Below are positions 10,305-57,393 of a stretch of DNA of 64,000 bases, one piece after another; positions within the stretch are counted from its first letter, which is position 1, and every line of letters begins with the position of its first letter. Both the position numbers and the translations under genes were made by a program. Below the pieces are notes generated by a model, which did no database searches, was not told the DNA's origin, and worked only from the letters and a program-made list of their open reading frames with translations. The DNA comes from Maridesulfovibrio sp. (GTDB lineage Bacteria; Desulfobacterota; Desulfovibrionia; Desulfovibrionales; Desulfovibrionaceae): the NCBI RefSeq assembly GCF_963666665.1, contig NZ_OY762999.1:3867954-3931953 (forward strand), written 5' to 3'.

Positions 10305-11419
10305 TGTCTCCCATTGACCGCAGATTACTTATTCATATGAACTGGTTCCTGCTGGGACTGGCGGCAATGCTTTTCTTTGTCGGTGTCCTAAATCTTTATT
10401 CCGCCAGCGGGTTCAGGCTGGAGCAGGGCATGAGTGTAAGTTCCTTCTATCAGAAGCAGCTTATCTGGGGCCTGATGGGCTTCGCCGGAATGATCACTTT
10501 TATGCTTTTTGATTACCGGCACTTAAGGACTATTGCATGGCCTTTGTTCTGGGTGACCGTCATTCTGCTGGCCTGCGTTCCCGTAATTGGTAAGACCATT
10601 TACGGTGCCCGCCGTTGGCTTGATCTGGGTTTTTTTAATTTCCAGCCCAGTGAAATGGCTAAGATCACCATTCTGGTTATCGGGGCCAAGATTCTGTCAC
10701 GCAGCGGTGATCCCCTGAATCTTAAGAGTCTCGCTTATGTCGTCGGTGTGGGGCTTATTCCCGCAGGTATGGTAATTACTCAGCCGGACCTTGGTTCTGG
10801 TCTGAACATCCTGCTTATTCTTGGCGGGATGATTCTTTATCGAGGACTTACTCCCAAGCTGTTTAAGACATTGGCAATTATAGGACCGTGCCTGATTCCG
10901 ATCGGCTGGTTTTTTCTGCACGATTACCAGAAGCGGCGTATTGTTTCATTCATGAACCCGGCCAGCGATCCGCTGGGAGCGGGATATCATATCATCCAGT
11001 CGGAAATCGCTATCGGTTCCGGACGTGTCTGGGGTAAAGGATTTCTGGGCGGAACGCAGTCTCAGCTGCGGTTTCTGCCCGAAAAGCATACTGACTTCGC
11101 CATCGCTGTTTTCGGTGAGGAGTGGGGCTTTGCCGGAGCCATGGCTCTGCTTAGTCTTTTTTGTGTGTTTTTGTATCAAATGGTTGTGACAGCCAGAGAA
11201 GCAAAAGACCTGTTCGGAAGCTATCTTGCGGCAGGCGTATTCTTTTATTTCTTCTGGCAAATCCTTATCAATATGGGTATGGTCCTCGGACTAATGCCGG
11301 TAGTAGGCATCCCTTTACCATTCATCAGTTATGGCGGCAGTGGTACCGTCGTCAACCTTTGTCTCGTGGGGCTCGTTTTAAACGTTTCCATGAGGCGTTA
11401 CGTATTTAAACAGGGGTAA
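10304..11419 (+). CDS. rodA: peptidoglycan glycosyltransferase RodA (SEDS family)
   Basis: 371-aa polytopic FtsW/RodA/SpoVE-type protein. Its start overlaps the mrdA stop (TAATG). Confidence 0.9.
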   Translation: MSPIDRRLLIHMNWFLLGLAAMLFFVGVLNLYSASGFRLEQGMSVSSFYQKQLIWGLMGFAGMITFMLFDYRHLRTIAWPLFWVTVILLACVPVIGKTIYGARRWLDLGFFNFQPSEMAKITILVIGAKILSRSGDPLNLKSLAYVVGVGLIPAGMVITQPDLGSGLNILLILGGMILYRGLTPKLFKTLAIIGPCLIPIGWFFLHDYQKRRIVSFMNPASDPLGAGYHIIQSEIAIGSGRVWGKGFLGGTQSQLRFLPEKHTDFAIAVFGEEWGFAGAMALLSLFCVFLYQMVVTAREAKDLFGSYLAAGVFFYFFWQILINMGMVLGLMPVVGIPLPFISYGGSGTVVNLCLVGLVLNVSMRRYVFKQG

Positions 11420-11469
11420 GCCGCATGTTTGGGTTTTCAAAAACCGGCTCTGGGGAAAAGGAGATTAAA

Positions 11470-11838
11470 ATGGCAAAAGATGAAATAAATGCATTCTTAG
11501 GCAGCGGAACCGATTATCAGGGTAAGCTGAACTTTCAGGGTGCAGTACGTATTGACGGTAATTTCAACGGTGAAGTTGAATCCGAGGGAACTCTGGTCGT
11601 AGGCCGCGAAGCGAAGGTTGAAGGCGTTTTGCGTGTAGGTCAGCTTGTTCTTAGCGGGCGTGTGACAGGTGAGGTTTATGCTGGCGAAAAGGCAGTCCTG
11701 CATAAGACTGCAAATCTGCAGGGCAACCTGGTCACCCCCACATTGGTAGTGGAAGAAGGTGCGGTTCTGGAAGGGCGTGTAACCATGAGTTCTAGCTCGT
11801 CTTCTGCAACTGAAACAGAAACAGAAGAAATTAGTTAA
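11470..11838 (+). CDS. bactofilin (polymer-forming cytoskeletal protein, DUF583)
   Basis: Repetitive beta-helical G-x-V/I-x-G pattern (FQGAVRIDGNFNGEVESEGTLVVG...) with a Ser-rich tail. The preferred start is ATG 11470, preceded by AAGGAG; the track ORF starts at 11425. Confidence 0.8.
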   Translation: MAKDEINAFLGSGTDYQGKLNFQGAVRIDGNFNGEVESEGTLVVGREAKVEGVLRVGQLVLSGRVTGEVYAGEKAVLHKTANLQGNLVTPTLVVEEGAVLEGRVTMSSSSSSATETETEEIS

Positions 11839-11980
11839 AAAAATAACAAGCCAGTGTTGACGGGGGTTAATGGGCGAAAAGTAACCGATTCATTTTCAAA
11901 AACCCTTTGACACAAGCTCTAAATTTAGCTACACCGCAACTGACTTTGGACAAAAATTCACAACCTTTTCGGGAGCAGGC

Positions 11981-12397
11981 ATGATTGATTTAGATATTAG
12001 CTTTTTTATCCAGTTAGCGAACTTCATCATCACCCTTCTTGTTCTCAACCTTCTTATGTTTCGTCCTATCCGTGAAATCATCAGGAGACGCGCAGAGCTT
12101 ATGAGCGATCAACTCTCCAAGGTGGAAAATTTCAACGGACAGGCTGCAACCAAGGTTAAGGATTACGAAGCTGCTCTGGACTCTGCCCGCAAAGAGGGAA
12201 TGGAAATCCGGAACGACTTCAAAGATCAGGGAGCTGCTCAGGAACAAACATTGCTTGCCGAGGCCGGAAAAGTCGCAGCCGCGACTATGAAGGAAGCTCG
12301 CGCGGAGGTTGCAGCTGATAAAGGTGCAGCAATGAAAGTTCTTGGTGGCGAAGTTGAAGCTTTTGCTCAGAAGGTTACAGCCAAGGTTCTTGGCTAG
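11981..12397 (+). CDS. F-type ATP synthase subunit b'
   Basis: 138 aa with one N-terminal TM helix followed by a long charged helix. It is the first of two b-type genes ahead of atpH. Confidence 0.7.
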   Translation: MIDLDISFFIQLANFIITLLVLNLLMFRPIREIIRRRAELMSDQLSKVENFNGQAATKVKDYEAALDSARKEGMEIRNDFKDQGAAQEQTLLAEAGKVAAATMKEARAEVAADKGAAMKVLGGEVEAFAQKVTAKVLG

Positions 12398-12427
12398 GCC
12401 TAATCAATATCGAAGGGGGGTTTAGCC

Positions 12428-12997
12428 TTGAAGCGGAAAAACATGATCATGGCAACAACCGCTCTTTCCGTACTGCTGGCAGCAGGCGCAGCCTATGCAA
12501 GTGGTGGAGAAGGGGCGCACGAGATTCCCTGGGCAAACTTCGGTTGGCGTGTACTTAACTTGATCCTCGTCCTCGGGATCCTTTACAAGTTTGCTGGCGA
12601 GAAAATCGCCTCTCTCTTTAAAGGACGCCAGGCAGGCATCAAACAGGAGCTAAACGATCTGCAGTCCCGCAAGGAAGCAGCAGAGAAAAAGCTCCGCGAC
12701 GTCGAATCAAGTATTGCTAATCTGGAACAGGAAAAGGATTCCATCCTTTCCGAGGCCAGATCTCAGGGCGAGGCCATGAAGGCGGCGATCATCCAGAAAG
12801 CCGAGCAGACTGCCGAGCAGATCAAAGCTCAGGCCAAAGTCTCCGCAGAGCAGGAAGTAAACGTAGCACTGGACGAAATGCGTGCAGAAATGGCTGACAA
12901 AGTCATCGAAGCAGCTGAGAAAATCGTCAAGAGCAAGCTTACCAAAGCTCAGCACGAGACTCTGGTGGATGAATACTTAACAAAGGTGGTGCTCTAA
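12428..12997 (+). CDS. atpF: F-type ATP synthase subunit b
   Basis: 189 aa with an N-terminal hydrophobic segment and an Ala/Glu/Lys-rich helix, directly upstream of atpH. TTG start per the track. Confidence 0.8.
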   Translation: MKRKNMIMATTALSVLLAAGAAYASGGEGAHEIPWANFGWRVLNLILVLGILYKFAGEKIASLFKGRQAGIKQELNDLQSRKEAAEKKLRDVESSIANLEQEKDSILSEARSQGEAMKAAIIQKAEQTAEQIKAQAKVSAEQEVNVALDEMRAEMADKVIEAAEKIVKSKLTKAQHETLVDEYLTKVVL

Positions 12998-13548
12998 TGA
13001 CCGGGAACATAGTCTCACGCAGATACGCCAAGGCGCTGTTCTCCGTTGGCCAGAAGCAGGGAGAAACTGACCTTGCGGCGTATGGTAAGGCACTGTCCGA
13101 GTTGTCCCAGATACTGGAGGAATCCCCGGAGGCCCTGAGGCTCTTCCAGAATCCTGTTTTCAGTGCGGATGAAAAGAAAGCCGTGCTTGAAAAACTGCTT
13201 GAGAAGACCTCGGCAGGACCTGTGGTTAAAAACTTTTGCAGCCTTCTGGCCGACAAAGGACGTCTGCCGGTTATTCCCGAGATCGCAAGCGACTTCGCAG
13301 GAATGCTGGACAACGTTCAGGGTGTCGTCCGTGGCAAACTGGTGACTGCAATCAAGCTGACCGTTAAGCGTCAGAAAGAAATTCAAGACCGTCTTGAAGA
13401 ACAACTGAAAAGCAAACTTGAGCTCGAGTTTGCTATGGATAAAGACATCCTCGGAGGTGTTGTTCTCAAGGTAGGCGATAAAGTTCTTGATGCAAGCATT
13501 CGCGCACAGCTGCAAATGATGAAAGAACAGATTAAAAGGGGTGTGTAG
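12997..13548 (+). CDS. atpH: F-type ATP synthase subunit delta (OSCP)
   Basis: 183 aa with the OSCP-like N-terminus (RRYAKALF) and the conserved [10 protein letters not shown] region. Its start overlaps the atpF stop. Confidence 0.85.
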
Positions 13549-13552
13549 GGCC

Positions 13553-15061
13553 ATGCAGATTAAAGCGGAAGAAATCAGCAAAATCATTGAAGATCAGATT
13601 CAGAATTATGAGTCTAAGGTCGAAATGAGCGAAACCGGTACCGTACTGTATGTTGGTGACGGTATTGCTCGTGTACATGGTGTTGAGAACGCAATGGCTA
13701 TGGAACTCCTCGAGTTCCCCGGCGGCCTGATGGGCATGGTTCTCAACCTCGAAGAAGATAACGTCGGTGTTGCTCTCCTCGGTGACGACACAGGCATTAA
13801 AGAAGGTGACCCGGTAAAACGTACCGGCAAGCTCTTCTCCGTACCTGTTGGTGACGCTGTTATGGGTCGCGTTGTGAACCCTCTCGGACAGCCCATCGAC
13901 GGTCTCGGACCTATTGAAGCAAAAGAAACCCGTCCTGTTGAGCTTAAAGCTCCCGGTATCATCGCACGTAAGTCCGTACATGAACCCATGTACACCGGTC
14001 TGAAGGCGATTGATGCGATGACTCCCATCGGACGTGGTCAGCGTGAGCTGGTTATTGGTGACCGTCAGGTTGGTAAGACCGCTATCTGCGTTGACGCAAT
14101 TCTCGCTCAGAAAGATTCCGGTATCCATTGCTTCTACGTAGCTATCGGTCAGAAAAAAGCATCAGTTGCTCTTGTTGCTGACATTCTGCGTAAGCACGGT
14201 GCAATGGAATACACCACAATCATTTCTGCAACAGCATCTGAGCCTGCACCTCTGCAGTTTATTTCTGCATACACCGGTGCAACCATGGCTGAGTACTACC
14301 GTGACGGTGGTAAGCACGCCCTCATCGCTTACGATGACCTTTCCAAACAGGCTGTTGCTTACAGACAGATGTCTCTCCTGCTTCGTCGCCCTCCGGGACG
14401 TGAAGCATACCCCGGTGACGTTTTCTACCTGCACTCAAGGCTCCTCGAGCGTTCTTGTAAAGTAAATGATAGCCTCGGCGCCGGTTCTCTGACCGCACTG
14501 CCTATCATTGAAACTCAGGCAGGTGACGTATCCGCATACATCCCGACCAACGTTATCTCTATTACCGACGGTCAGGTTTACCTCGAGCCTAACCTCTTCA
14601 ACTCCGGTATCCGTCCTGCTGTTAACGTAGGTCTGTCCGTATCCCGAGTTGGTGGTGCTGCTCAGATTAAAGCTATGAAGCAGGTTGCCGGTACTCTGCG
14701 TCTTGACCTCGCACAGTATCGTGAACTGGCAGCTTTCGCAGCTTTCGGTTCCGACCTCGATAAGGCCACTCAGCAGAAGCTGAACCGCGGTGCCCGCATG
14801 GTTGAGCTTCTTAAGCAGCCTCAGTACAAGCCCATGAACGTCATGGAGCAGGTTGTATCTCTGTACGCCGGTACCCGCGGCTACATGGATGAAGTTCCTG
14901 TTTCCGCAGTACGTAAATATGAAGATGAACTCCAGGAATTCATCGCTAACGCGAAGCCTGAAATTCTGGAAGGCATCAAGACTAAAGGCGCTATTGACGA
15001 CGATATCGAAGGCAAGCTGAAGGCCGCTCTGGAAGAGTTTAATAAAGGTTTCACAGCTTAA
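13553..15061 (+). CDS. atpA: F-type ATP synthase subunit alpha
   Basis: Starts [12 protein letters not shown] with Walker A GDRQVGKT; highly conserved throughout. The track ORF begins 4 codons earlier, at a GTG. Confidence 0.97.
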
Positions 15062-34422: not shown

Positions 34423-35625
34423 ATGAATGCGGCGGATACTTCATTTATACTTATTTGTGCAGCTCTGGTTATGTTTATGACTCCGGGGCTGGCCCTTTTC
34501 TATGGTGGTATGGTGCGTAGCAAAAACGTATTGGCTACGATCATGCAGAGTTTCATCATGCTCGGACTGGTTTCAATTGTCTGGGCGGTCATCGGGTATT
34601 CCTTGTCCTTTGGGACTGACATCGGCGGTGTTATCGGCGGTATGGATTTCTTCGCCCTTAATGGTGTGGGCATGGATACAGTTAACAGCCCCGCCAGCAA
34701 CCTGCCTCATCTTCTTTTTATGGTTTTCCAGTGTATGTTTGCGGTCATCACCCCCGCACTTATAACCGGAGCCTTTGCCGAGCGTATGAAGTTCGGTGCA
34801 TTGCTGATTTTCAGCGCCTTCTGGGTTATCCTTGTTTATGCTCCCATGTGCCACTGGGTCTGGGGCGGCGGCTGGATGGGGGACCATGGTGCTCTCGACT
34901 TTGCAGGCGGCGCGGTTGTTCACATGAGTTCCGCAGCAGCAGCTCTTGCCGGATGTTTGGTCGTGGGTAAGCGCAAGGGATATGGTAAAGAGCCTTTCAT
35001 TCCCCACAACCTGCCTATGACCCTGCTCGGCGCGGGTATGCTCTGGTTCGGCTGGTTCGGTTTTAACGCCGGTTCCGCCCTTGCTGCTAACGGTCTGGCT
35101 GCCAATGCTTTTGTAACCACTCACCTTGCCGCAGCTGCCGCAGTTCTTGGCTGGTTGCTTGTTGAAGCCATGCATGGTGGCAAACCTACCACTCTCGGTG
35201 CTGCTTCCGGTGCTGTGGCCGGGCTGGTTGCCATCACCCCGGCAGCCGGTTTTGTAACTCCCATGGCTTCTATTGTTATCGGTTTCGGTGGCGGTATGGT
35301 CTGCTATGGTGGTGTGCTTATGAAATCCAAGTTCGGCTACGATGATTCCCTTGACGTTGTCGGTATTCACGGTCTGGGCGGAACTTACGGGGCTATCGTT
35401 ACCGGATTGTTTGCCAGCATCGGTGCGGAAGGTCTCTTTTACGGCAACGCCTCCCAGCTTTGGATCCAGATTGAATCCTGCATTGCCACCTGGGCATACT
35501 GTTTTACTGTAAGCTGGATTCTTTTCAAATTGATCGACAAGTTTTACGGCTTGCGTCCTTCTGAAGAAGAGGAAGTTGCAGGGATGGATGTCTCGGATCA
35601 CAGCGAAACCGGTTATCAGATTTAA
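34423..35625 (+). CDS. amtB: ammonium transporter
   Basis: 400-aa polytopic Amt family protein (FYGGMVRSKN, AGGAVVHMSS, DDSLDVVGIHGLGG). Confidence 0.93.
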   Translation: MNAADTSFILICAALVMFMTPGLALFYGGMVRSKNVLATIMQSFIMLGLVSIVWAVIGYSLSFGTDIGGVIGGMDFFALNGVGMDTVNSPASNLPHLLFMVFQCMFAVITPALITGAFAERMKFGALLIFSAFWVILVYAPMCHWVWGGGWMGDHGALDFAGGAVVHMSSAAAALAGCLVVGKRKGYGKEPFIPHNLPMTLLGAGMLWFGWFGFNAGSALAANGLAANAFVTTHLAAAAAVLGWLLVEAMHGGKPTTLGAASGAVAGLVAITPAAGFVTPMASIVIGFGGGMVCYGGVLMKSKFGYDDSLDVVGIHGLGGTYGAIVTGLFASIGAEGLFYGNASQLWIQIESCIATWAYCFTVSWILFKLIDKFYGLRPSEEEEVAGMDVSDHSETGYQI

Positions 35626-49291: not shown

Positions 49292-49356
49292 TGATGTTAT
49301 AACACGATCAAGTCTCTTATTATTGACCCGTTATGCTGCGAAAGGTATGTTTGAGT

Positions 49357-50151
49357 ATGCGTGCAAATTTAATTTTTTCGGCATTACTTGCTGTACTTTC
49401 TTTTTCAAGTGTCACTTATGCGGAGGTAAGTGTCCGGTATTCATGTTGCGAAACGAGGAACAACCAGTTTGTAGGAGAGTTGCTCTCCAGTGCTTTAAAA
49501 GCCAGCAGCCCTGATGTTAATTTTGTTATGCTGAAATGCTACCCGAATTTGCGCAAACGCCGCATGCTTGAACATGGTTCAATCGATGTACTACCGCTGA
49601 TCCAAAGTAAGAAGTATGACGAAGAGCATATTCCAATTAACGTTCCGCTCACTAAGGGCAATATTTCAAAGCGAGTGCTGGTTGTTTCAAAATCTAAAGT
49701 AGGCCTTTTTGAAAATGTAAATTCATTAGAAGATTTTCGGGCCTTGAATTTAGTAGGCGCGTTCGGCCAAAAATGGTTCGATAACAAAGTGTGGGAAGAG
49801 AATGGTCTAAAGCATGTCTCTGTGGCGGATTGGCAGCTTATTTATTGTATGCTGAGTCGTACGAATAGAAATGTTGACTATTTTCCGCGATCTGTTCTTG
49901 AAGCAAAGGAAGAGATTCGTACTTATTCGGACTTGGTAATTGTCCCGAATATCCTTTTTTCTTATGATAAGAACATCATAATCTATCTTTCACCCAAACG
50001 TAGGGAATTGAAGCCTATATTGGAGAAAGCCTTGCGAAATGCACAATCGTCAGGCTTAATCGATAAACTGGTGGATAAATATTATGGGCAGGATCTAAAC
50101 AGTCTTGAAATTGATAAGCGGAAGGTCTTCCATTTAAAGACACCGGAGTAA
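49357..50151 (+). CDS. exported hypothetical protein, family-3 solute-binding-protein-like
   Basis: Signal peptide MRANLIFSALLAVLSFSSVTYA. The length and alternating pattern resemble orphan SBP_bac_3-like proteins. It is visibly more AT-rich than the flanking eno and folD. Confidence 0.45.
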   Translation: MRANLIFSALLAVLSFSSVTYAEVSVRYSCCETRNNQFVGELLSSALKASSPDVNFVMLKCYPNLRKRRMLEHGSIDVLPLIQSKKYDEEHIPINVPLTKGNISKRVLVVSKSKVGLFENVNSLEDFRALNLVGAFGQKWFDNKVWEENGLKHVSVADWQLIYCMLSRTNRNVDYFPRSVLEAKEEIRTYSDLVIVPNILFSYDKNIIIYLSPKRRELKPILEKALRNAQSSGLIDKLVDKYYGQDLNSLEIDKRKVFHLKTPE

Positions 50152-51192: not shown

Positions 51193-51251
51193 AAATATTC
51201 TACTAGAATAATTCTAAGAGAATAAAATTTAGCATTCTTTTAGAATAATTT
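51193..51251. repeat. 59-nt structured repeat, left copy (palindrome ATTCTACTAGAAT plus a 13-bp-stem hairpin)
   Basis: Sequence is AAATATTCTACTAGAAT-A-ATTCT-N26-AGAATAATTT. It aligns position by position with the copy at 52384..52442. Confidence 0.8.
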
Positions 51252-51261
51252 GGAGTATGTT

Positions 51262-52383
51262 GTGAATAATCCTTTTCGCTTTAATACCTTGCGACCAAGT
51301 GATCCCTTTTGTGACCGTGAAAAGGAACTCACTGATTTGATTTCACACGGCATGAATGGTGCGAACGTAACCCTATTTTCTCCGCGCAGGTACGGGAAAA
51401 CATCTTTGATTAAACGTGCCCAGAAGGAAATGCATGATAAGGGCGCCTATGTGTTTTATGTTGATTTTTACAGGGTCATGTCGGTTGAGGATCTTGCTTC
51501 GAGATTGGCGCGGGCTGTTTATGAAGGATTGAGCGAGTATGTATCTTTTTTCGAGAAAGGTAAAAAGGCTCTGCTTGAATTTTTCAAGACTTATAGGCCT
51601 GTTTTTACTCCCACTGAAGAAGGGGGAGTAAAAATAGATGTTCGTGCTACTGAAGGCATTTCCGGTTATGACCTGCTTGAATCCCTGCTCTCCGAGATAG
51701 GGCGGTTTACCGAGAAGTCGGATAAGCCAGTGCATATTGCCATGGATGAGTTTCAGGATATTGTTGAAGTGGACAAGGGTAAGACTGAAGCTTTACTGCG
51801 AACGCATATCCAGATGCATGGCGCGGGGTATATATTTGCAGGAAGCAGGCGACGTATTCTTAAATCCATGTTTACTGACAGGCATCGTCCTTTCTATAAC
51901 AGCACCCTTTTGATGGAACTCCCTCCTCTGCCACATGAAGATCTTGTGGAGTATATTGTCGAGCTTTTCAATAAGGGTGGTAAGTCCATTTCGCACGAAG
52001 CTGCCTCTACCGTTTCAAATCTTGTACAGCAATATCCTTACTACGCGCAGCTTTTCAGTTATTTGTTATTCAGTATGGGAGACAACCCCAGTCTAGAGGA
52101 TGTTGATGAATGTTTTGAGTCACTTCTTGCGAGTGAGAGGTATTCCTATCAGGGGATTGTTGACGGCTTAACACCGGTGCAACTGGCTTTGCTGGTGGGG
52201 TTGGCAAAATATCCGGGGAGCAAGGTTACTTCTCAGGTGTTTTTGAAGGAAACGAATCTATCGTCAGGTGGAGTCCAAAAGGCTTTAAAACACCTGAGTA
52301 TACAGGATTTAGTTAGCAATGAAGAAAACGGTTGGGAGCTTGTTGATCCTGTTTTTAGAAAGTGGCTGGTCAGGACATTTTAA
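51262..52383 (+). CDS. AAA+ ATPase, Arch_ATPase/DUF234-like
   Basis: Walker A (SPRRYGKTSL), Walker B (VHIAMDEFQDI) and a C-terminal winged-helix-like region. The preferred start is GTG 51262 after TGGAG; the track ORF starts at TTG 51250. Confidence 0.75.
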   Translation: MNNPFRFNTLRPSDPFCDREKELTDLISHGMNGANVTLFSPRRYGKTSLIKRAQKEMHDKGAYVFYVDFYRVMSVEDLASRLARAVYEGLSEYVSFFEKGKKALLEFFKTYRPVFTPTEEGGVKIDVRATEGISGYDLLESLLSEIGRFTEKSDKPVHIAMDEFQDIVEVDKGKTEALLRTHIQMHGAGYIFAGSRRRILKSMFTDRHRPFYNSTLLMELPPLPHEDLVEYIVELFNKGGKSISHEAASTVSNLVQQYPYYAQLFSYLLFSMGDNPSLEDVDECFESLLASERYSYQGIVDGLTPVQLALLVGLAKYPGSKVTSQVFLKETNLSSGGVQKALKHLSIQDLVSNEENGWELVDPVFRKWLVRTF

Positions 52384-52561: not shown

Positions 52562-53368
52562 ATGAAAGGACTCACCGAATTGCTGACTTGTATTCAGGAA
52601 ATTTCCGGCGGAAATTATTCCAATGACATCATGCATTTGACTACTGATGAATATGATCCTTACGTGCGGGAACTGGCGGAATCAGTTGGCTTGATGATGG
52701 TCCGTATTGAGGCCCGTGAATTTGCGCTTGAGCAGGCTAATGAAGAACTTAAGTGTAATGTGGTTGCAACCGTCAAAGCCGTGGCTCGCGGTTTGAGTCT
52801 GCGCGATCCGTATACCCGCGGACATGCGGAACGGGTTGGTAATTATTGCGAGCGCTTGGCTCGCAGGATGGGACTTTCCGAAGATGAAATCTGGACCGTG
52901 CATGTAGCTGGAACCCTGCATGATATAGGCAAGATCGGGTTCAGTGACCGCTTGATCCAAAATGTAGATACCAAGGTTGATGCGGATATGCTGGCGGAGA
53001 TCAAGCAGCACCCGGAATGGGGATTCAAGATGCTGCGCGGGCTGGAGTTTCTCGGTCCTGCTTTGGAATATGTGCGTTCGCACCATGAGCGTCTGGACGG
53101 GACCGGATATCCCAACGGCTTGCAGGGCGATGAAATCAAGACCGGATCACGTATCCTTTCTATTGCCGATGTGTTTGACGCTGTAACCACCACCCGCAGT
53201 TATCAGGAAGCTATGGATTTGGAAAAAGCCTATTCTACCCTGCGTAAGCTGGCTGGCCCTTCTCTTGATCCTAAGTTGGTGGAGTTTTTCATAGCCGAAA
53301 CTAAAGAAAACGGCCTTGAGGATGTGGAAGAAAATTTCAGTACCTGCCCTATGGGAAAATCAGGTTAA
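52562..53368 (+). CDS. HD-GYP domain c-di-GMP phosphodiesterase with an N-terminal HAMP-like segment
   Basis: HDIGKIG and HHERLDGTGYP motifs. The N-terminal LTELLTCIQEISGGNYSNDI...DEYDPYVRELAESVGLMMVRI resembles a HAMP AS1-connector-AS2 unit. Confidence 0.88.
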   Translation: MKGLTELLTCIQEISGGNYSNDIMHLTTDEYDPYVRELAESVGLMMVRIEAREFALEQANEELKCNVVATVKAVARGLSLRDPYTRGHAERVGNYCERLARRMGLSEDEIWTVHVAGTLHDIGKIGFSDRLIQNVDTKVDADMLAEIKQHPEWGFKMLRGLEFLGPALEYVRSHHERLDGTGYPNGLQGDEIKTGSRILSIADVFDAVTTTRSYQEAMDLEKAYSTLRKLAGPSLDPKLVEFFIAETKENGLEDVEENFSTCPMGKSG

Positions 53369-53385
53369 TAGTATAGGCCCTTGTT

Positions 53386-53427
53386 GGGGCTTCTTTAGAC
53401 TATTAAAGAAGCCCCTGTTGTATTTTT
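53386..53427. terminator. hairpin terminator between the convergent HD-GYP gene and the AT-rich operon
   Basis: GGGGCTTCTTTA / TAAAGAAGCCCC stem. A T-rich tail is present on the + strand only. Confidence 0.65.
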
Positions 53428-54502
53428 ACTGCTCACGATTTGTGAAATTCAAAGACCTTTTGCCTGGATTGGTTATCGTCTTTTGAACTAATATAATCAT
53501 GAATAGAAATGGAACAAAATCCAATGTTAAGCATAAGGCCCACCAGTGCAGCATGTTCAGAATATTATTGTAACATAATTTTATAGTTGGCTCGCTGGAG
53601 GCCAAATCTTTTAGTGGTGCAATTGTTATATCTAATGCTTTGAATGCCTTTTGTATCTGTTCTAAATCACCCTGTAATGTGTTGGCTTCAGTTGTTAAAG
53701 CCTTTTGGGTGCTTGTTTGCTTCTGCTGGGAGTACTCACGGAGAGTTTGCTCGAGGTTTTTAATTGAGTTTTCAAGTGATATTTGTCCAATCCCTATTCC
53801 GGGAGATAGTATTTTTTGTAACTCCAGATTAATTGTGCGGACATGGTTCGAATAGTTCCTTTTAGTAAATGATTCAGGGTCAGATTCCATTATGCTCAGT
53901 TCAGAAGTAATAATTTTCTGTGATGCATTTATCTTTTCAATGTTAGAGTCTACTTTATTTTGTATATCAGATATTTTTTTATCTACAATGGTAGCAGATT
54001 TCCATATTGTGCCTTTTTTTTGATTTCCAGTATATAAACCTTGACTTGAATTTTTAAGAATTCTTTCTGTGTCTTTTTGTGCGATGTTGATAGATTGCTG
54101 TGCGGTTATATATTTGGGTATTAAGTCGCTTTCAGTGAAATTGTTTGAGAATGTTTTGTATTGATCATAGTTGGATAATCTATAGATTTCATTTTTGGAT
54201 AATCCTACAATTGACCACATTGTAGAACTAGAGAATATAAGAATTGCCGCAGTTATTATTAGTAGTATTCTTGATATGAAACTGTGTGTTGAGCTTAGAA
54301 ATTTTGCTATTATATTTGAAAAGTACAGCATTAGAAAGAAGCTTGCTAGTGCAACTGTTGAAGCTATGAATGGTGATACGCTGTCTATGAGCCCTGTATA
54401 TGTTGCGTATGCTGATGCACTTGTGCATATTAATATTGTTAATAAAAGTCCAAAAGTTGTCAGTGCTGTTTTAAGCTGTTCTATTTTTCTTCTGTTAAAC
54501 AT
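53426..54502 (-). CDS. hypothetical membrane protein: 3 N-terminal TM helices, a hydrophilic helical region of about 210 aa, and 1 C-terminal TM helix (operon gene 4)
   Basis: 358-aa ORF with GAGG 6 nt upstream of the ATG and an 8-nt overlap with the preceding gene. Hydrophobic segments lie at about 13-35, 42-65, 76-100 and 316-338. The central region is Ser/Asn/Lys/Gln/Ile-rich. I recognise no family. Confidence 0.7.
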   Translation of the reverse strand: MFNRRKIEQLKTALTTFGLLLTILICTSASAYATYTGLIDSVSPFIASTVALASFFLMLYFSNIIAKFLSSTHSFISRILLIITAAILIFSSSTMWSIVGLSKNEIYRLSNYDQYKTFSNNFTESDLIPKYITAQQSINIAQKDTERILKNSSQGLYTGNQKKGTIWKSATIVDKKISDIQNKVDSNIEKINASQKIITSELSIMESDPESFTKRNYSNHVRTINLELQKILSPGIGIGQISLENSIKNLEQTLREYSQQKQTSTQKALTTEANTLQGDLEQIQKAFKALDITIAPLKDLASSEPTIKLCYNNILNMLHWWALCLTLDFVPFLFMIILVQKTITNPGKRSLNFTNREQ

Positions 54503-55634
54503 TGTATACCTCTATTGACCCTTCAATATTGTTTTTCTCTGCCCATTGCTCACACAGTTTTGCAATTTGATGGTATTGTCTTCTTTTGGGACTTCGTTTG
54601 GGGTGTTGAGTCCTTTCATCTCCTCGCTCAATTCCTATTTTTAGGTGATTGGCTTTGATTAGCATTGAGAAATGGCTCGTTTGTAATATCTCAGAGAAGC
54701 ATGCGAAAAAAATATATGAATTCCAGTCTTCCCATTTGTTGTTGCTTGTGGATGATAAGTTGTCAGGAATCAGTGATGTTATTTTAGTAGAAGATAGTCC
54801 CAGTATTTTGCAGGCAAGAATAGCTTCGTATGAAATATTACAGATTACTCCATTTTTTGTATAAGCTTCTGTGTTCAGGGTGAATTTCTTTTGATCCTCT
54901 ATGTCATTTAGAAATACATGGGCTGATAGTGGAGGAATGATGCTGGTTGTATGTATGTTGAGTTTTTCCAAGGTTTTTGTGATTATATTTTTTTTTCTGT
55001 CGATTGAGTTGTGAATTTTGCTTAGTTGTCGTTTTGATAGGATCGCACAGTATCCAGATTTCAATACGTGTAGGTATTGGTCGTTTTCATTTATTTCTAT
55101 TGGAATAATCGCCGGCTGTGTTGAGCTTAATTCTGCTGCAACAGCAATTAATTCTGCTAATGACCCTGAATCAACCGAGACTATCTGATGTTTCTTATTT
55201 TCAATGTGCTGATAGTTAATTAGATGGCTAAAATGCGATCTTAATGCAATATCTTGCATTTGGGTGTCCCAGAGGTCTGTTTCCGTCGAGAGTAGTGCAT
55301 TGAATGCCTCTATCTCCTGTTCAAATGCGGCCGAAACGGCATATTCTTTAATTGATTTTATGTCAGTTTTATTAAGGTGCTCAAGTTTGCGTATGAGATG
55401 TTCAATGAAATAGTACACCGCTACGGAGTCGTTTTTGTTGGTGTATTGGAATCTTAATATTAGCCTGCCTTCTCTCCCTTCGAGTCGCTTTATTGGTTTG
55501 CTTTTGTATGTTTGTATATATTTTTTGTCTTGGGTGGTGTTTATTGTAAACATTTCCATGGGATAGTCTATGAAGTGAGATAGCTCGGAGGTGTAAACCT
55601 CTGTCTCTGGTGATATGTCGGCTCCAGTAATCAT
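54495..55634 (-). CDS. hypothetical soluble protein, 379 aa (operon gene 3)
   Basis: Long uninterrupted ORF in AT-rich DNA. ATGA start/stop overlap with the GTPase gene. Basic C-terminal patch RTQHPKRSPKRRQYHQ. I recognise no motif. Confidence 0.7.
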   Translation of the reverse strand: MITGADISPETEVYTSELSHFIDYPMEMFTINTTQDKKYIQTYKSKPIKRLEGREGRLILRFQYTNKNDSVAVYYFIEHLIRKLEHLNKTDIKSIKEYAVSAAFEQEIEAFNALLSTETDLWDTQMQDIALRSHFSHLINYQHIENKKHQIVSVDSGSLAELIAVAAELSSTQPAIIPIEINENDQYLHVLKSGYCAILSKRQLSKIHNSIDRKKNIITKTLEKLNIHTTSIIPPLSAHVFLNDIEDQKKFTLNTEAYTKNGVICNISYEAILACKILGLSSTKITSLIPDNLSSTSNNKWEDWNSYIFFACFSEILQTSHFSMLIKANHLKIGIERGDERTQHPKRSPKRRQYHQIAKLCEQWAEKNNIEGSIEVYNV

Positions 55635-56491
55635 TTTGCAATCCGTTCAATAAAGTTTATAAAGCTTCTTGTATATATGTGTCCGTCTATTTCTATGTAG
55701 TATTCATAGTCTGGGTACGATTTGTTGTTTATTGTGTGAGTATTGCCCACTGTAGAATGCCATGTGTAAGAGATATTCTCTGGGTTAAAACAGTCTTTTA
55801 GAAGGTTGCTCGCGGTGAAATATTTTTTGCTAAAAAACGTTTTTGCTGTATCTCCCTCGGTATATAGGTCTTCAACTTTATCGGTTTTAAAGTGAATGTC
55901 AGATTTGTTGAGGACTACCATAACAGGAATGTTGACTGGGTTACCAATGTCCAACCCATAGTTGAGTGACATCATTTCCGCTAATCGCCTGATGAACATT
56001 GTGTCAGACATAGGTGTTGTTTGGCCTAAAGCGAATTTGTTGCTGACTTCATACGGTTCAGGGATTGCAGGGTCGTCAAGATCCAGCATGATGATGATTC
56101 CATCAGCTTGGCAAATACTGAGTAGTAATTGTTCGTCAGGGTCATTTGATGTGGAAAGAAGTTGTTTTATTACATTGGGTGGTTGTTTTTGAAAGTACTC
56201 TAATTTACGGGCCAGGCGTTCTAAATCCCCTCCTGAGATGTCAGGAAGGTTGAAAGAAACATCTAGCTCTCTATCACTCAGATTCATTATTACCGATCTT
56301 CGAACCAATTCTTTTGCTTCTTTGTTTTGAATTGTCGGCTTAATCCATTCTCTTCTGTCAATAGCATCACTAATTTCGTGGTTTCTTGCTATGGTATGGC
56401 ATCCGTACAGATCGTGTTGCCTTATTTTTTCAAGCATTAAATACAAATAGCACGTCTTTCCTGATTTTCTTTTTCCAATTATTAATATCAA
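55631..56491 (-). CDS. Ras-like (TRAFAC-class) P-loop GTPase, 286 aa (operon gene 2)
   Basis: G1 GKRKSGKT, G3 DISGG at the end of a beta-hairpin (VIMNLS...LDVSFNLPDISGG), and G4 NKSD after a hydrophobic strand (IPVMVVLNKSD). The start is reassigned to TTG 56491, with GGAGG 7 nt upstream and a TTGA overlap with the upstream stop. The track start at 56620 would overlap the upstream gene by 133 nt. Confidence 0.7.
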   Translation of the reverse strand: MILIIGKRKSGKTCYLYLMLEKIRQHDLYGCHTIARNHEISDAIDRREWIKPTIQNKEAKELVRRSVIMNLSDRELDVSFNLPDISGGDLERLARKLEYFQKQPPNVIKQLLSTSNDPDEQLLLSICQADGIIIMLDLDDPAIPEPYEVSNKFALGQTTPMSDTMFIRRLAEMMSLNYGLDIGNPVNIPVMVVLNKSDIHFKTDKVEDLYTEGDTAKTFFSKKYFTASNLLKDCFNPENISYTWHSTVGNTHTINNKSYPDYEYYIEIDGHIYTRSFINFIERIAK

Positions 56492-56955
56492 AACAAAGCC
56501 TCCCCACAGATTAAAAGTCCACTTGCTAGTCCCGTCATTGAACTTGCCCCATATATTATTTCCCGTTTGCGTGATTTGTTGGGGATAGCTTGGGTCAAGC
56601 CAATATTTACAATAAACCACGCAATTGAAGCGATGGTTAGTTTTAAGGGCAAAGAGATCAAAGGCGTGTCCAGAAGATGAGAAAAGATGATGAAGGTGGA
56701 AAACGTAAGGATCTCTAAAATATATATTGCAGGTTTTGTCGCTTGAAGCGTTTTGTTTATTATGTGTATTTTGATTGTACAGATAGTGAGAGCAACCAAA
56801 CCGGTAAAACCTGCTAATGAATAGAATTTATGAAATATGGGTAGAAGCTTTATCGGTGGGGCATCAATGATGATTTGGGTAATTCCGTATATTGTGAGGA
56901 ATATACCGACTCCACCATAAAAAAGACGAATAGGTGGTTTTGAGTTGTTCTTCAC
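56488..56955 (-). CDS. small polytopic membrane protein, 155 aa, 4-5 TM helices (operon gene 1)
   Basis: GTG start with GGGAGA 7 nt upstream. Four to five hydrophobic helices. I recognise no family. Confidence 0.65.
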   Translation of the reverse strand: MKNNSKPPIRLFYGGVGIFLTIYGITQIIIDAPPIKLLPIFHKFYSLAGFTGLVALTICTIKIHIINKTLQATKPAIYILEILTFSTFIIFSHLLDTPLISLPLKLTIASIAWFIVNIGLTQAIPNKSRKREIIYGASSMTGLASGLLICGEALF

Positions 56956-56983
56956 TATAGATTCTCCCGTAATTGTTTTCCGT

Positions 56984-57012
56984 AATATTTGTTAAAAAAA
57001 TAACACTGTCAA
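56984..57012 (-). promoter_or_regulatory. candidate sigma-70 promoter for the AT-rich operon (TTGACA-N17-AATATT)
   Basis: On the minus strand, TTGACA at 57012-57007 and AATATT at 56989-56984 with a 17-nt spacer, about 30 nt upstream of the GTG start. Confidence 0.3.
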
Positions 57013-57393
57013 TTAATATGTTAAATTAAAAGTTTTAATAAGTATTTATTAGTTAATAAAGTTCATGATTTTAAATGGTTGTGTAATGTTGATTTGTATA
57101 AAATTAAGAATCATTACTAATTTTCTTGCCTTCTTTTTAGAAGTGCTTATTATCTTTCTTCGTGTTAAGTATATCTTAACAGTCGCATGGCACAGCGAAG
57201 ACCTAATAAAAGGTTTTGATTTGCCTCTTTCAGAGGTTCACCCCTTCGAATCGTTGCTTTTAAGGCAATTTTCAAGTCTGCTTTTATGTGGGTTTGCAGG
57301 GTTCTTAAACTCTTTTTACGAAGAGGGGGAAAGCTGGAGGAGGTAAATTTTAATAAACTAAAAGCGCGATGCGCATCAAATCAGCCTCTTATC

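Follow-up and report, generated by a model that had tools for sequence, protein, structure and literature searches.

This study concerns a four-gene module on the minus strand of a 64,000-nucleotide (nt) stretch of DNA from Maridesulfovibrio sp. (Desulfovibrionaceae; contig NZ_OY762999.1, positions 3,867,954 to 3,931,953 of the forward strand), hereafter the window, in which position 1 is the first letter of the stretch. The module lies between an HD-GYP gene and uvrA. In the order of transcription it comprises gene A (56488..56955), which encodes a membrane protein of 155 amino acids (aa) and has a GTG start and a GGGAGA ribosome-binding site; gene B (55631..56491), which encodes a 286-aa GTPase and has a TTG start; gene C (54495..55634), which encodes a soluble protein of 379 aa; and gene D (53426..54502), which encodes a 358-aa protein with transmembrane (TM) helices on either side of a helical domain. 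C and D were taken from a list of open reading frames (ORFs), A from the same list combined with reading of the sequence, and B from reading of the minus strand. The four frames overlap at every junction, by TTGA between A and B (56488-56491), by ATGA between B and C (55631-55634) and by 8 nt between C and D (54495-54502), all read on the minus strand; both the frames and the junctions lie where an earlier note on this DNA, made from the letters and their ORF list, had placed them. The region is one translationally coupled four-gene operon that has a candidate promoter and a terminator of its own, and the four-gene feature is real rather than an artefact.

The start of B deserves attention. 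The mechanical ORF list begins this gene at GTG 56620; the true start is TTG 56491, preceded by GGGGAGG, because both the TTGA junction that it forms with A and the N-terminus that it yields, MILI(A/I)GKR(K/R)SGKT, are kept in the orthologous metagenomic loci L002 and L003. Public calls of the two GTPase orthologues at these loci, P0002 and P0003, begin at an internal ATG and thereby lose the P-loop (L002 250-294; L003 370-414), and in both, the genuine TTG start and the stop codon of gene A overlap. Start-site truncation of this kind would mask the GTPase nature of these proteins from domain annotation.

At its downstream end, the operon is closed by the hairpin that the earlier note had seen after gene D, a bidirectional intrinsic terminator (53386-53415) with a 13-bp stem followed by a T-run, which lies between the convergent HD-GYP and D genes. 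The hairpin core, GGCTTCTTT...AAAGAAGCC, is common to the window and to the module-bearing loci L002 and L004, and the terminator therefore travels with the module. At the upstream end, a candidate sigma-70-type promoter on the minus strand (TTGACA-N17-AATATT, 56984-57012) lies ~29 nt upstream of the start of A. Promoter-like matches are no more frequent here than in shuffled sequence (16 vs 13.6 +/- 4.1); the -35/-10 pair of the candidate is kept at the same spacing in L004, amid otherwise diverged sequence. This promoter had been described as part of an AT-rich spacer of ~440 nt in front of the operon. The motif exists as described and is kept in L004, but the spacer of 435 nt is composite and only 146 of its nucleotides belong to the module: positions 56956-57101 (G+C content, GC, 0.20) are part of the insert, whereas positions 57102-57390 (289 nt) are the conserved leader of uvrA.

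B carries the motifs of a P-loop GTPase, namely G1 (GKRKSGKT, residues 6-13), G3 (DISG, 84-87) and G4 (NKSD, 195-198). In an alignment of 11 sequences G6, G11-K12-T13, G87, K196 and D198 are invariant, with D84 and N195 nearly so, and the NKxD motif marks B as a GTP-specific P-loop protein in all probability. The protein opens with the P-loop strand itself, no zinc ribbon being evident in its sequence, and ends in a C-terminal extension of ~90 aa that contains an invariant HS...PDY...Y pattern (HS 245-246; PDY 260-262, in which Y262 is invariant; Y273). Together with an invariant W49 upstream of the putative switch I, these residues are specific to the family.

As to the class of this GTPase, 9 of the 11 B members match the Pfam model DO-GTPase2 (PF19993) and 7 of the 11 match DO-GTPase1 (PF19975). 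Five relatives of B (P0009, P0010, P0013, P0014 and P0015) score 28-37.4 bits on DO-GTPase2, above the Pfam gathering cut-off of 27 bits, over model positions ~3-193 of 226, and P0009 also scores 30.1 bits on DO-GTPase1. The same five match the B profile at E values of 4e-21 to 3e-7, and P0013 and P0014 reside in the same four-gene module layout. The B protein of the window itself stays under the cut-off of 27 bits, with 18.0 bits (E 0.0025) on DO-GTPase2 and 16.7 bits on DO-GTPase1. Because its relatives pass the threshold over most of the model, transitive homology assigns B to the TRAFAC GTPases as a divergent DO-GTPase2-type member rather than to the Ras family. A conserved glutamate in the Walker B motif is a DO-GTPase trait (PMC7159879); P0009, P0010, P0013 and P0015 read DxxGE, and the Maridesulfovibrio proteins read DISGG(D/Q)LE, with the glutamate four residues past the glycine.

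The label "Ras-like GTPase" under which B had been introduced is thus replaced. The small_GTP model TIGR00231 gives 19.4 bits against a cut-off of 42.5 and covers only the P-loop stretch; Arf is matched by 2 of the 11 members, at a best E of 0.026; and none of the Ras, Arf and Rab Pfam models is matched significantly. Against the PDB, the B-family profile finds marginal matches to G-alpha, SR-beta, GPN and Ral chains (best E 5.5e-5). Ras-superfamily and extended-Ras GTPases (Arf, SR-beta, Ral, G-alpha) resemble B in the P-loop, DxxG and NKxD motifs, whereas the C-terminal HS...PDY...Y extension, the invariant W49 and the lack of a significant Ras, Arf or Rab match set B apart. A single-sequence AlphaFold2 model of B reached a predicted local distance difference test (pLDDT) score of 36.5 and was unusable.

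D is the most conserved component. Hydropathy places its TM helices at residues 13-31, 41-59 and 74-92 in the N-terminal part and at 321-339 near the C-terminus, and with the positive-inside rule predicts an N-in/C-in topology in which a helical domain of ~228 aa (93-320) would be periplasmic. The earlier description of D as a TM/coiled-coil/TM protein is right in that TM helices stand at both ends of a helical protein, but the N-terminal part holds three of them, giving a 3+1 arrangement. The largely alpha-helical character of D is judged from weak matches of coiled-coil type. In an alignment of eight sequences the invariant residues are C26, S30, T34, Y35, G37, S93, T94, W96, V99, G100 and K103, followed by N151, G155, Y157, G159, W320, W321, D328 and P331; the TM segments are nearly invariant and include invariant polar or small residues. 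Across genera D proteins are 24-28% identical (BLAST E 1e-30 to 1e-46).

C is a cytoplasmic protein built of a constant and a variable part. Its N-terminal half (residues ~19-203) is kept across genera and its C-terminal half varies; a comparison by hhalign of the Maridesulfovibrio and Pseudodesulfovibrio C families gives a probability of 95% (E 3.7e-8) over residues 19-203 only. An AlphaFold2 model from a five-sequence alignment has a mean pLDDT of 49, with residues ~1-116 at 70-86 forming five strands and three helices, and a Foldseek search of this model against the PDB returned nothing at E <= 1e-3. Matches to TagF and to Lst4-longin at E 0.2-2 suggest, only as a lead, that the N-terminal domain might have a longin/roadblock-like GTPase-binding fold.

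A is a small polytopic membrane protein with ~4 TM helices and a C-terminal segment rich in K and R. It is the fastest-evolving component (27-41% identity within Maridesulfovibrio), and its homology across genera is not demonstrable, the proteins having only size, position and TM character in common.

Library scans covered the four window proteins and distant orthologues, and sequence-profile searches of the PDB covered B, C and D. In the libraries, the window and orthologue proteins matched nothing apart from sub-threshold DO-GTPase models and noise over coiled-coil or P-loop stretches. Coiled-coil noise aside, relatives of A, C and D are missing from Pfam, NCBIfam, PADLOC, PHROGs and the PDB, in keeping with the earlier statement that only the GTPase has a recognisable fold. 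A, C and D very probably constitute three new protein families. That C or D could be a degenerate second GTPase of a "double" system is ruled out by profile comparison with B, and the module therefore has one GTPase only.

The four genes are also found together elsewhere. Word-seeded searches of 5.8 billion proteins returned four to five relatives each for B, D and C, and when 1.84 billion representative proteins were searched exhaustively with HMMER, the B profile returned 11 proteins at E <= 1e-3, nine of which are true family members of 248-282 aa; the other two are P0016, a spurious match to a repeat protein, and P0017, a zinc-ribbon DO-GTPase-like outgroup. Every B-family member with a readable context has the same four-gene layout, in eight lineages of Maridesulfovibrio (the window, L001, L002 and L003/L004) and of Pseudodesulfovibrio or relatives (L013/L014, which is P. 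profundus-like, L015, L016/L017 and L018). The co-occurrence in constant order that was to be looked for in other genomes was found in a second genus and in unrelated contexts, the neighbourhoods being entirely different between lineages. Component sizes stay within ~150-180, 275-286, 365-382 and 346-361 aa for A, B, C and D, and the junctions overlap or nearly abut. In the exhaustive search, relatives on long contigs occur only in Desulfovibrionaceae, and three members lie on short contigs of unknown host. A metagenome scan with the D profile re-found only one known contig.

Across genera the homology of B is clear, at 22-28% identity. All module genes are intact and under purifying selection in the eight lineages; in the closest pair, the ratio of nonsynonymous to synonymous substitutions per site (dN/dS) is lowest in D (0.045), followed by B (0.089) and C (0.169), and constraint falls in the order D > B > C > A.

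At the window locus the module is an accessory segment. In comparison with L005 and L006, where the site is empty, homology ends at 53359-53364 and resumes at 57102, which delimits a present/absent segment of 3742 bp (53360..57101; GC 0.36) containing the terminator, D-C-B-A and the promoter region. Genomes of GTDB species scanned with the HD-GYP protein show that in the closest species (L005, L006 and L007) HD-GYP is directly followed by uvrA, so that presence and absence between these two genes, which the earlier note had suggested comparing among close relatives, does vary; the HD-GYP proteins of these species are 84-95% and their uvrA 93-99% identical to those of the window. The uninserted junction, in which the uvrA leader follows on the end of HD-GYP (…KDSKNN* in L005), is common to L005, L006 and L001 and is therefore ancestral, and ~33 bp of it are replaced in the window. 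The nearest module-less relatives are at dS 0.23-0.48 from the window, whereas those that carry the module are at dS ~1.1. Within a given genome pair, module dN (0.14-0.48) exceeds dN of the flanking core genes (0.01-0.03) by a factor of 5-50; the proportion of synonymous differences (pS) is 0.73-0.81 in the module and 0.30-0.60 in the flanks, both near saturation, and a separate history is only suggested by these values. A repeat search found no flanking or terminal repeat at the segment ends, an ORF survey of 40-64 kb found no integrase, and no Rfam element lies nearby. There is likewise no tRNA near the module, the sole ARAGORN call in the window lying 18 kb away and looking spurious. Integrase, tRNA and flanking repeat had already been reported as missing. 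The ARAGORN call in question is a tRNA-Phe of 92 nt (35129-35220, plus strand), over-long and set in G+C-rich sequence that by eye looks coding, and is probably a false positive.

The composition of the segment is unusual for its surroundings. GC is 0.366 in the module against 0.487 in the rest of the window, the module is the lowest 3.5-kb block of a sliding profile (minimum 0.357; mean 0.481, standard deviation 0.031), and GC at third codon positions is 0.30-0.38 in the module genes against 0.51-0.59 in folD, HD-GYP and uvrA. The same low GC (0.37-0.38) is found in the orthologous Maridesulfovibrio modules, which are 46-60% identical and saturated at synonymous sites; in the window, L001, L002 and L004 the modules, at GC ~0.37, lie about 11 points under their hosts. 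Pseudodesulfovibrio modules lie only 3-9 points under their flanks. Because low GC is kept in Maridesulfovibrio orthologues with saturated synonymous sites, it is not a signal of recent acquisition; the composition is long-standing. Of the earlier picture of a compositionally foreign, horizontally acquired module, the lowest GC and GC3 of the window and the accessory 3.74-kb present/absent segment stand, and the low GC as a mark of recent foreign acquisition falls away.

The eno-folD-HD-GYP-uvrA region is a variable hotspot in Maridesulfovibrio. The slot between folD and HD-GYP holds the four-gene module in L001. In L005, the nearest relative of the window, it holds an Mrr_cat + nSTAND3 protein that matches the PADLOC candidate PDC-S73 (E 4e-196). 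In the window it holds a 377-aa ATPase_2 protein (51250-52383, plus strand; archaeal-type AAA with a MarR-type winged helix-turn-helix; GC 0.44), whose gene is itself variable cargo, and in L006 and L007 a 396-aa ORF whose N-terminus resembles, by eye, an iron-type alcohol dehydrogenase. In turn, the slot between HD-GYP and uvrA is occupied in L008 and L009, two more distant Maridesulfovibrio genomes, by an overlapping three-gene cassette (10789-14068 in either locus) encoding a 383-aa protein without Pfam match, a group-1 glycosyltransferase and a sulfotransferase. The hotspot thus exchanges a PADLOC defence candidate, surface-modification genes and the four-gene module.

Further features of this region lie outside the module. 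An ORF between eno and folD, orf272 (49333-50151, plus strand; GC 0.40), has a signal-peptide-like N-terminus and no Pfam or PADLOC match. It is absent from the short eno-folD spacers (108-182 bp) of L001, L005, L006 and L007 and is therefore an insertion in its own right, the third in 8 kb of core genome. On the other side, the uvrA leader (57102-57390, plus strand) is 94% identical to that of L005 over 499 bp that include the coding start; it contains a promoter-like TTGCCT-N16-TATTAT (57126-57153) and has no Rfam match. A block of ~80 bp within it (about 57200-57285) is confined to the window, L005 and L006. A palindrome, AAAGCGCGAnGCGCATCAAAT (57361-57381), closely precedes the uvrA start; it is kept in five of six loci and may be an operator for damage-inducible control.

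Two functional links suggested by gene position were considered and rejected. HD-GYP always adjoins the module in Maridesulfovibrio, but this association is positional only, since HD-GYP is a core gene that is present at empty sites and does not adjoin the module in Pseudodesulfovibrio. Similarly, the hydrogenase-maturation genes HypC and HycI stand near the module in L015 and L018, which amount to one related pair of contexts only.

The family of B connects the module to the GTPase-centric systems, a set of computationally predicted conflict systems (Kaur, Burroughs, Iyer and Aravind, eLife 2020; PMC7159879). These contain a DO-GTPase, often zinc-ribboned and often present as a paralogous pair, a GAP1 protein (N1/N2, M and C), GASH or FNIII components and variable effectors (PMC7159879). 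The third component is a GASH helical protein in systems with GAP1-N1 and an FNIII-repeat protein in those with GAP1-N2, and the effectors include SLATT, peptidases and EAD-linked domains (PMC7159879). TM components are found in 67% of DO-GTPase systems, and GAP1 is fused to the GTPase or encoded beside it, in the position immediately downstream (PMC7159879). The module resembles these systems, and most closely the GAP1-N2/DO-GTPase2 type, in its GTPase family, its membrane components, its patchy and mobile-looking distribution, the constant-plus-variable partner encoded downstream of the GTPase (here C) and the accessory, conflict-type role proposed for it. The patchy, mobile character is visible in its presence or absence at one locus among close species and in its differing location in each lineage. 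Two of its four products are membrane proteins. In contrast to the DO-GTPase-GAP1 systems, it lacks GAP1, GASH, FNIII, a zinc ribbon, a second GTPase paralogue and recognisable effector or EAD domains; it has a fixed four-gene architecture with three novel families; its identified hosts are marine, sulfate-reducing Desulfovibrionaceae and not mainly multicellular bacteria; and the window GTPase is under the Pfam threshold (18 vs 27 bits). The only variable part of the module is the unannotated C-terminal half of C. The module is treated here as lying outside the DO-GTPase-GAP1 systems proper, as a variant that lacks GAP1 and is centred on the same GTPase family.

The outgroup P0017 (L019 139-7402), which is zinc-ribboned and DO-GTPase-like, stands in the canonical arrangement. 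Downstream of it come a 756-aa protein whose GAP1-M match is faint, a TraG/VirD4-type coupling-protein-like ATPase, and SMI1_KNR4 and Tox-GHH proteins, and the locus looks like a GTPase-centric system beside polymorphic-toxin/immunity genes.

Zorya and Kiwa are membrane-anchored multi-gene anti-phage systems in which a membrane sensor or effector acts with cytoplasmic partners. From general knowledge, a functional analogy to the module can be drawn, both being small operons in variable hotspots in which polytopic or coiled-coil membrane proteins are paired with cytoplasmic ones. To our knowledge, systems of the Zorya/Kiwa type use no GTPase of B's family. The module components differ from them in giving zero significant PADLOC matches, the analogy having been checked by hidden Markov model scans alone. 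In PADLOC-DB v2.0.0 the window proteins have no match at E <= 1, and the L013 and L018 orthologues give noise only (E >= 0.0027, over coiled-coil or P-loop stretches). Together with the profile libraries, this check placed A, C and D in no characterised system, as the earlier note had anticipated.

Against this background we tentatively favour, at somewhat less than an even chance, the reading of the module as a GAP1-less, membrane-embedded variant of the GTPase-centric conflict/defence systems, whose function we infer. Counted in its favour are the conservation of the four genes as one unit, the DO-GTPase affinity of B, the accessory status of the segment with its empty sites and shared slots, and the pattern of evolution, with high module dN, constant and variable parts in C and nearly invariant TM segments in D. 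D, possibly with A, would form a membrane complex, and the extracytoplasmic domain of D would report events at the envelope, for instance phage attack or damage to it. Docking at the membrane, B would serve as a GTP-dependent threshold switch. C would bind B through its constant N-terminal domain, occupying the gene position of GAP1, and its variable C-terminal half would be a specificity or output element. Output could then pass through the invariant polar TM core of D, for example as membrane permeabilisation or abortive infection. A more specific version of this proposal, possible but doubtful, is a new anti-invader machine of the abortive-infection type, a four-component membrane assembly in which a single DO-type GTPase, regulated by the adaptor C, would gate D, which would both sense an envelope event and permeabilise the membrane. 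If this is true, GTPase-centric immunity would have a branch independent of GAP1, and the module would define three new protein families. The conflict-type role put forward in the earlier note gains circumstantial support from the hotspot, where the folD-HD-GYP slot, home of the module in L001, contains PDC-S73 in the nearest relative. Defence, abortive infection and membrane remodelling stay conjectural; no effector domain was identified.

Several observations weigh against assigning the module to GTPase-centric conflict systems. No GAP1-N1, -N2, -M or -C match was found at E <= 0.1 in eight members of the C family, nor in A or D, and no GASH or FNIII match in any component of any lineage. 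Effector domains (nuclease, peptidase, TIR, SLATT or similar) were found in none of the Pfam, PADLOC, PHROGs and NCBIfam scans. Around the Pseudodesulfovibrio modules, the neighbours are by Pfam mostly housekeeping genes (Fur/ZnuA, hydrogenase maturation, Iso_dh, PanB); no neighbour at these loci was identified as a defence gene, the exceptions to housekeeping being SIR2 and a CI-repressor/S24 gene, and PADLOC, which was run on five unannotated neighbours and the CI/S24 gene only, returned nothing. Plasmid and phage records contain no B protein, plasmids no D, and viral contigs no match to either profile. The searchable literature holds no experimental characterisation of DO-GTPase systems, and the rarity of the module leaves little statistical power for guilt-by-association. 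Lastly, the periplasmic placement of the D domain is based only on hydropathy and the positive-inside rule, and the C model is mostly of low confidence outside residues ~1-116.

Some of these points would be at home in a different explanation, namely that the module is a non-defence accessory envelope machine, a GTPase-regulated complex for signalling, transport, membrane repair or remodelling, or surface assembly in certain marine Desulfovibrionaceae, with D as sensor or transporter and B as switch. We regard this as possible but rather unlikely. D is by far the most constrained component, and its invariant polar TM residues are typical of transporters and receptors; the housekeeping neighbourhoods of Pseudodesulfovibrio and the lack of any detected effector or toxin domain agree with such a role. 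So does the association with surface genes, since in L013 surface-polymer genes (MptE-like, IspD, Glyphos_transf and a sulfotransferase) come after the module on its own strand and in L008 and L009 the HD-GYP-uvrA slot holds glycosyl- and sulfotransferases. An envelope machine would, however, have to be reconciled with a patchy distribution in which the nearest relatives have empty sites, with a different genomic location in every lineage and with the fast evolution of A and C. In addition, the closest relatives of the GTPase are found in predicted conflict systems (PMC7159879), and the slot is shared with PDC-S73.

It is improbable that the module is a canonical DO-GTPase-GAP1 system in which C would be a GAP1 that has diverged strongly and D a diverged form of GASH or of a TM effector. 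The DO-GTPase2-type nature of B fits this idea, as do the position of C directly downstream of the GTPase, like that of GAP1 (PMC7159879), its division into constant and variable parts and the largely alpha-helical character of D. However, C was rejected as a cryptic GAP1: 0 of 8 members match GAP1 at E <= 0.1, and an hhalign comparison of the C profile with the GAP1-M-like neighbour of P0017 gives a probability of 0.1%. C is also short, at 379 aa against 756 aa for this one GAP1-M-like protein examined. FNIII and GASH are not matched in A, C or D, B has neither zinc ribbons nor a paralogous second GTPase, and C and D are not degenerate GTPases.

A recently transferred island from an AT-rich donor, with genes that are perhaps decaying or are selfish cargo without host function, would account for the lowest-GC block of the window, its sharp indel boundaries and its own promoter and terminator, but is improbable given that GC 0.37-0.38 is kept in orthologues 46-60% identical with saturated synonymous sites, that the genes are intact and under purifying selection in eight lineages, that no AT-rich donor, plasmid or phage was found carrying the module and that its long-contig relatives occur only in Desulfovibrionaceae (three short-contig members being of unknown host).

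Under the tentatively favoured reading as a GAP1-less variant of the GTPase-centric systems, the module would be a minimal version of a DO-GTPase system, with one GTPase, three partners in fixed order, no GAP1 and no swappable effector. Such a minimal module could offer a tractable entry point to the role of DO-GTPases at the membrane. With ~9 proteins among 1.84 billion its general impact is limited, yet it is a clean case of lineage-specific innovation.

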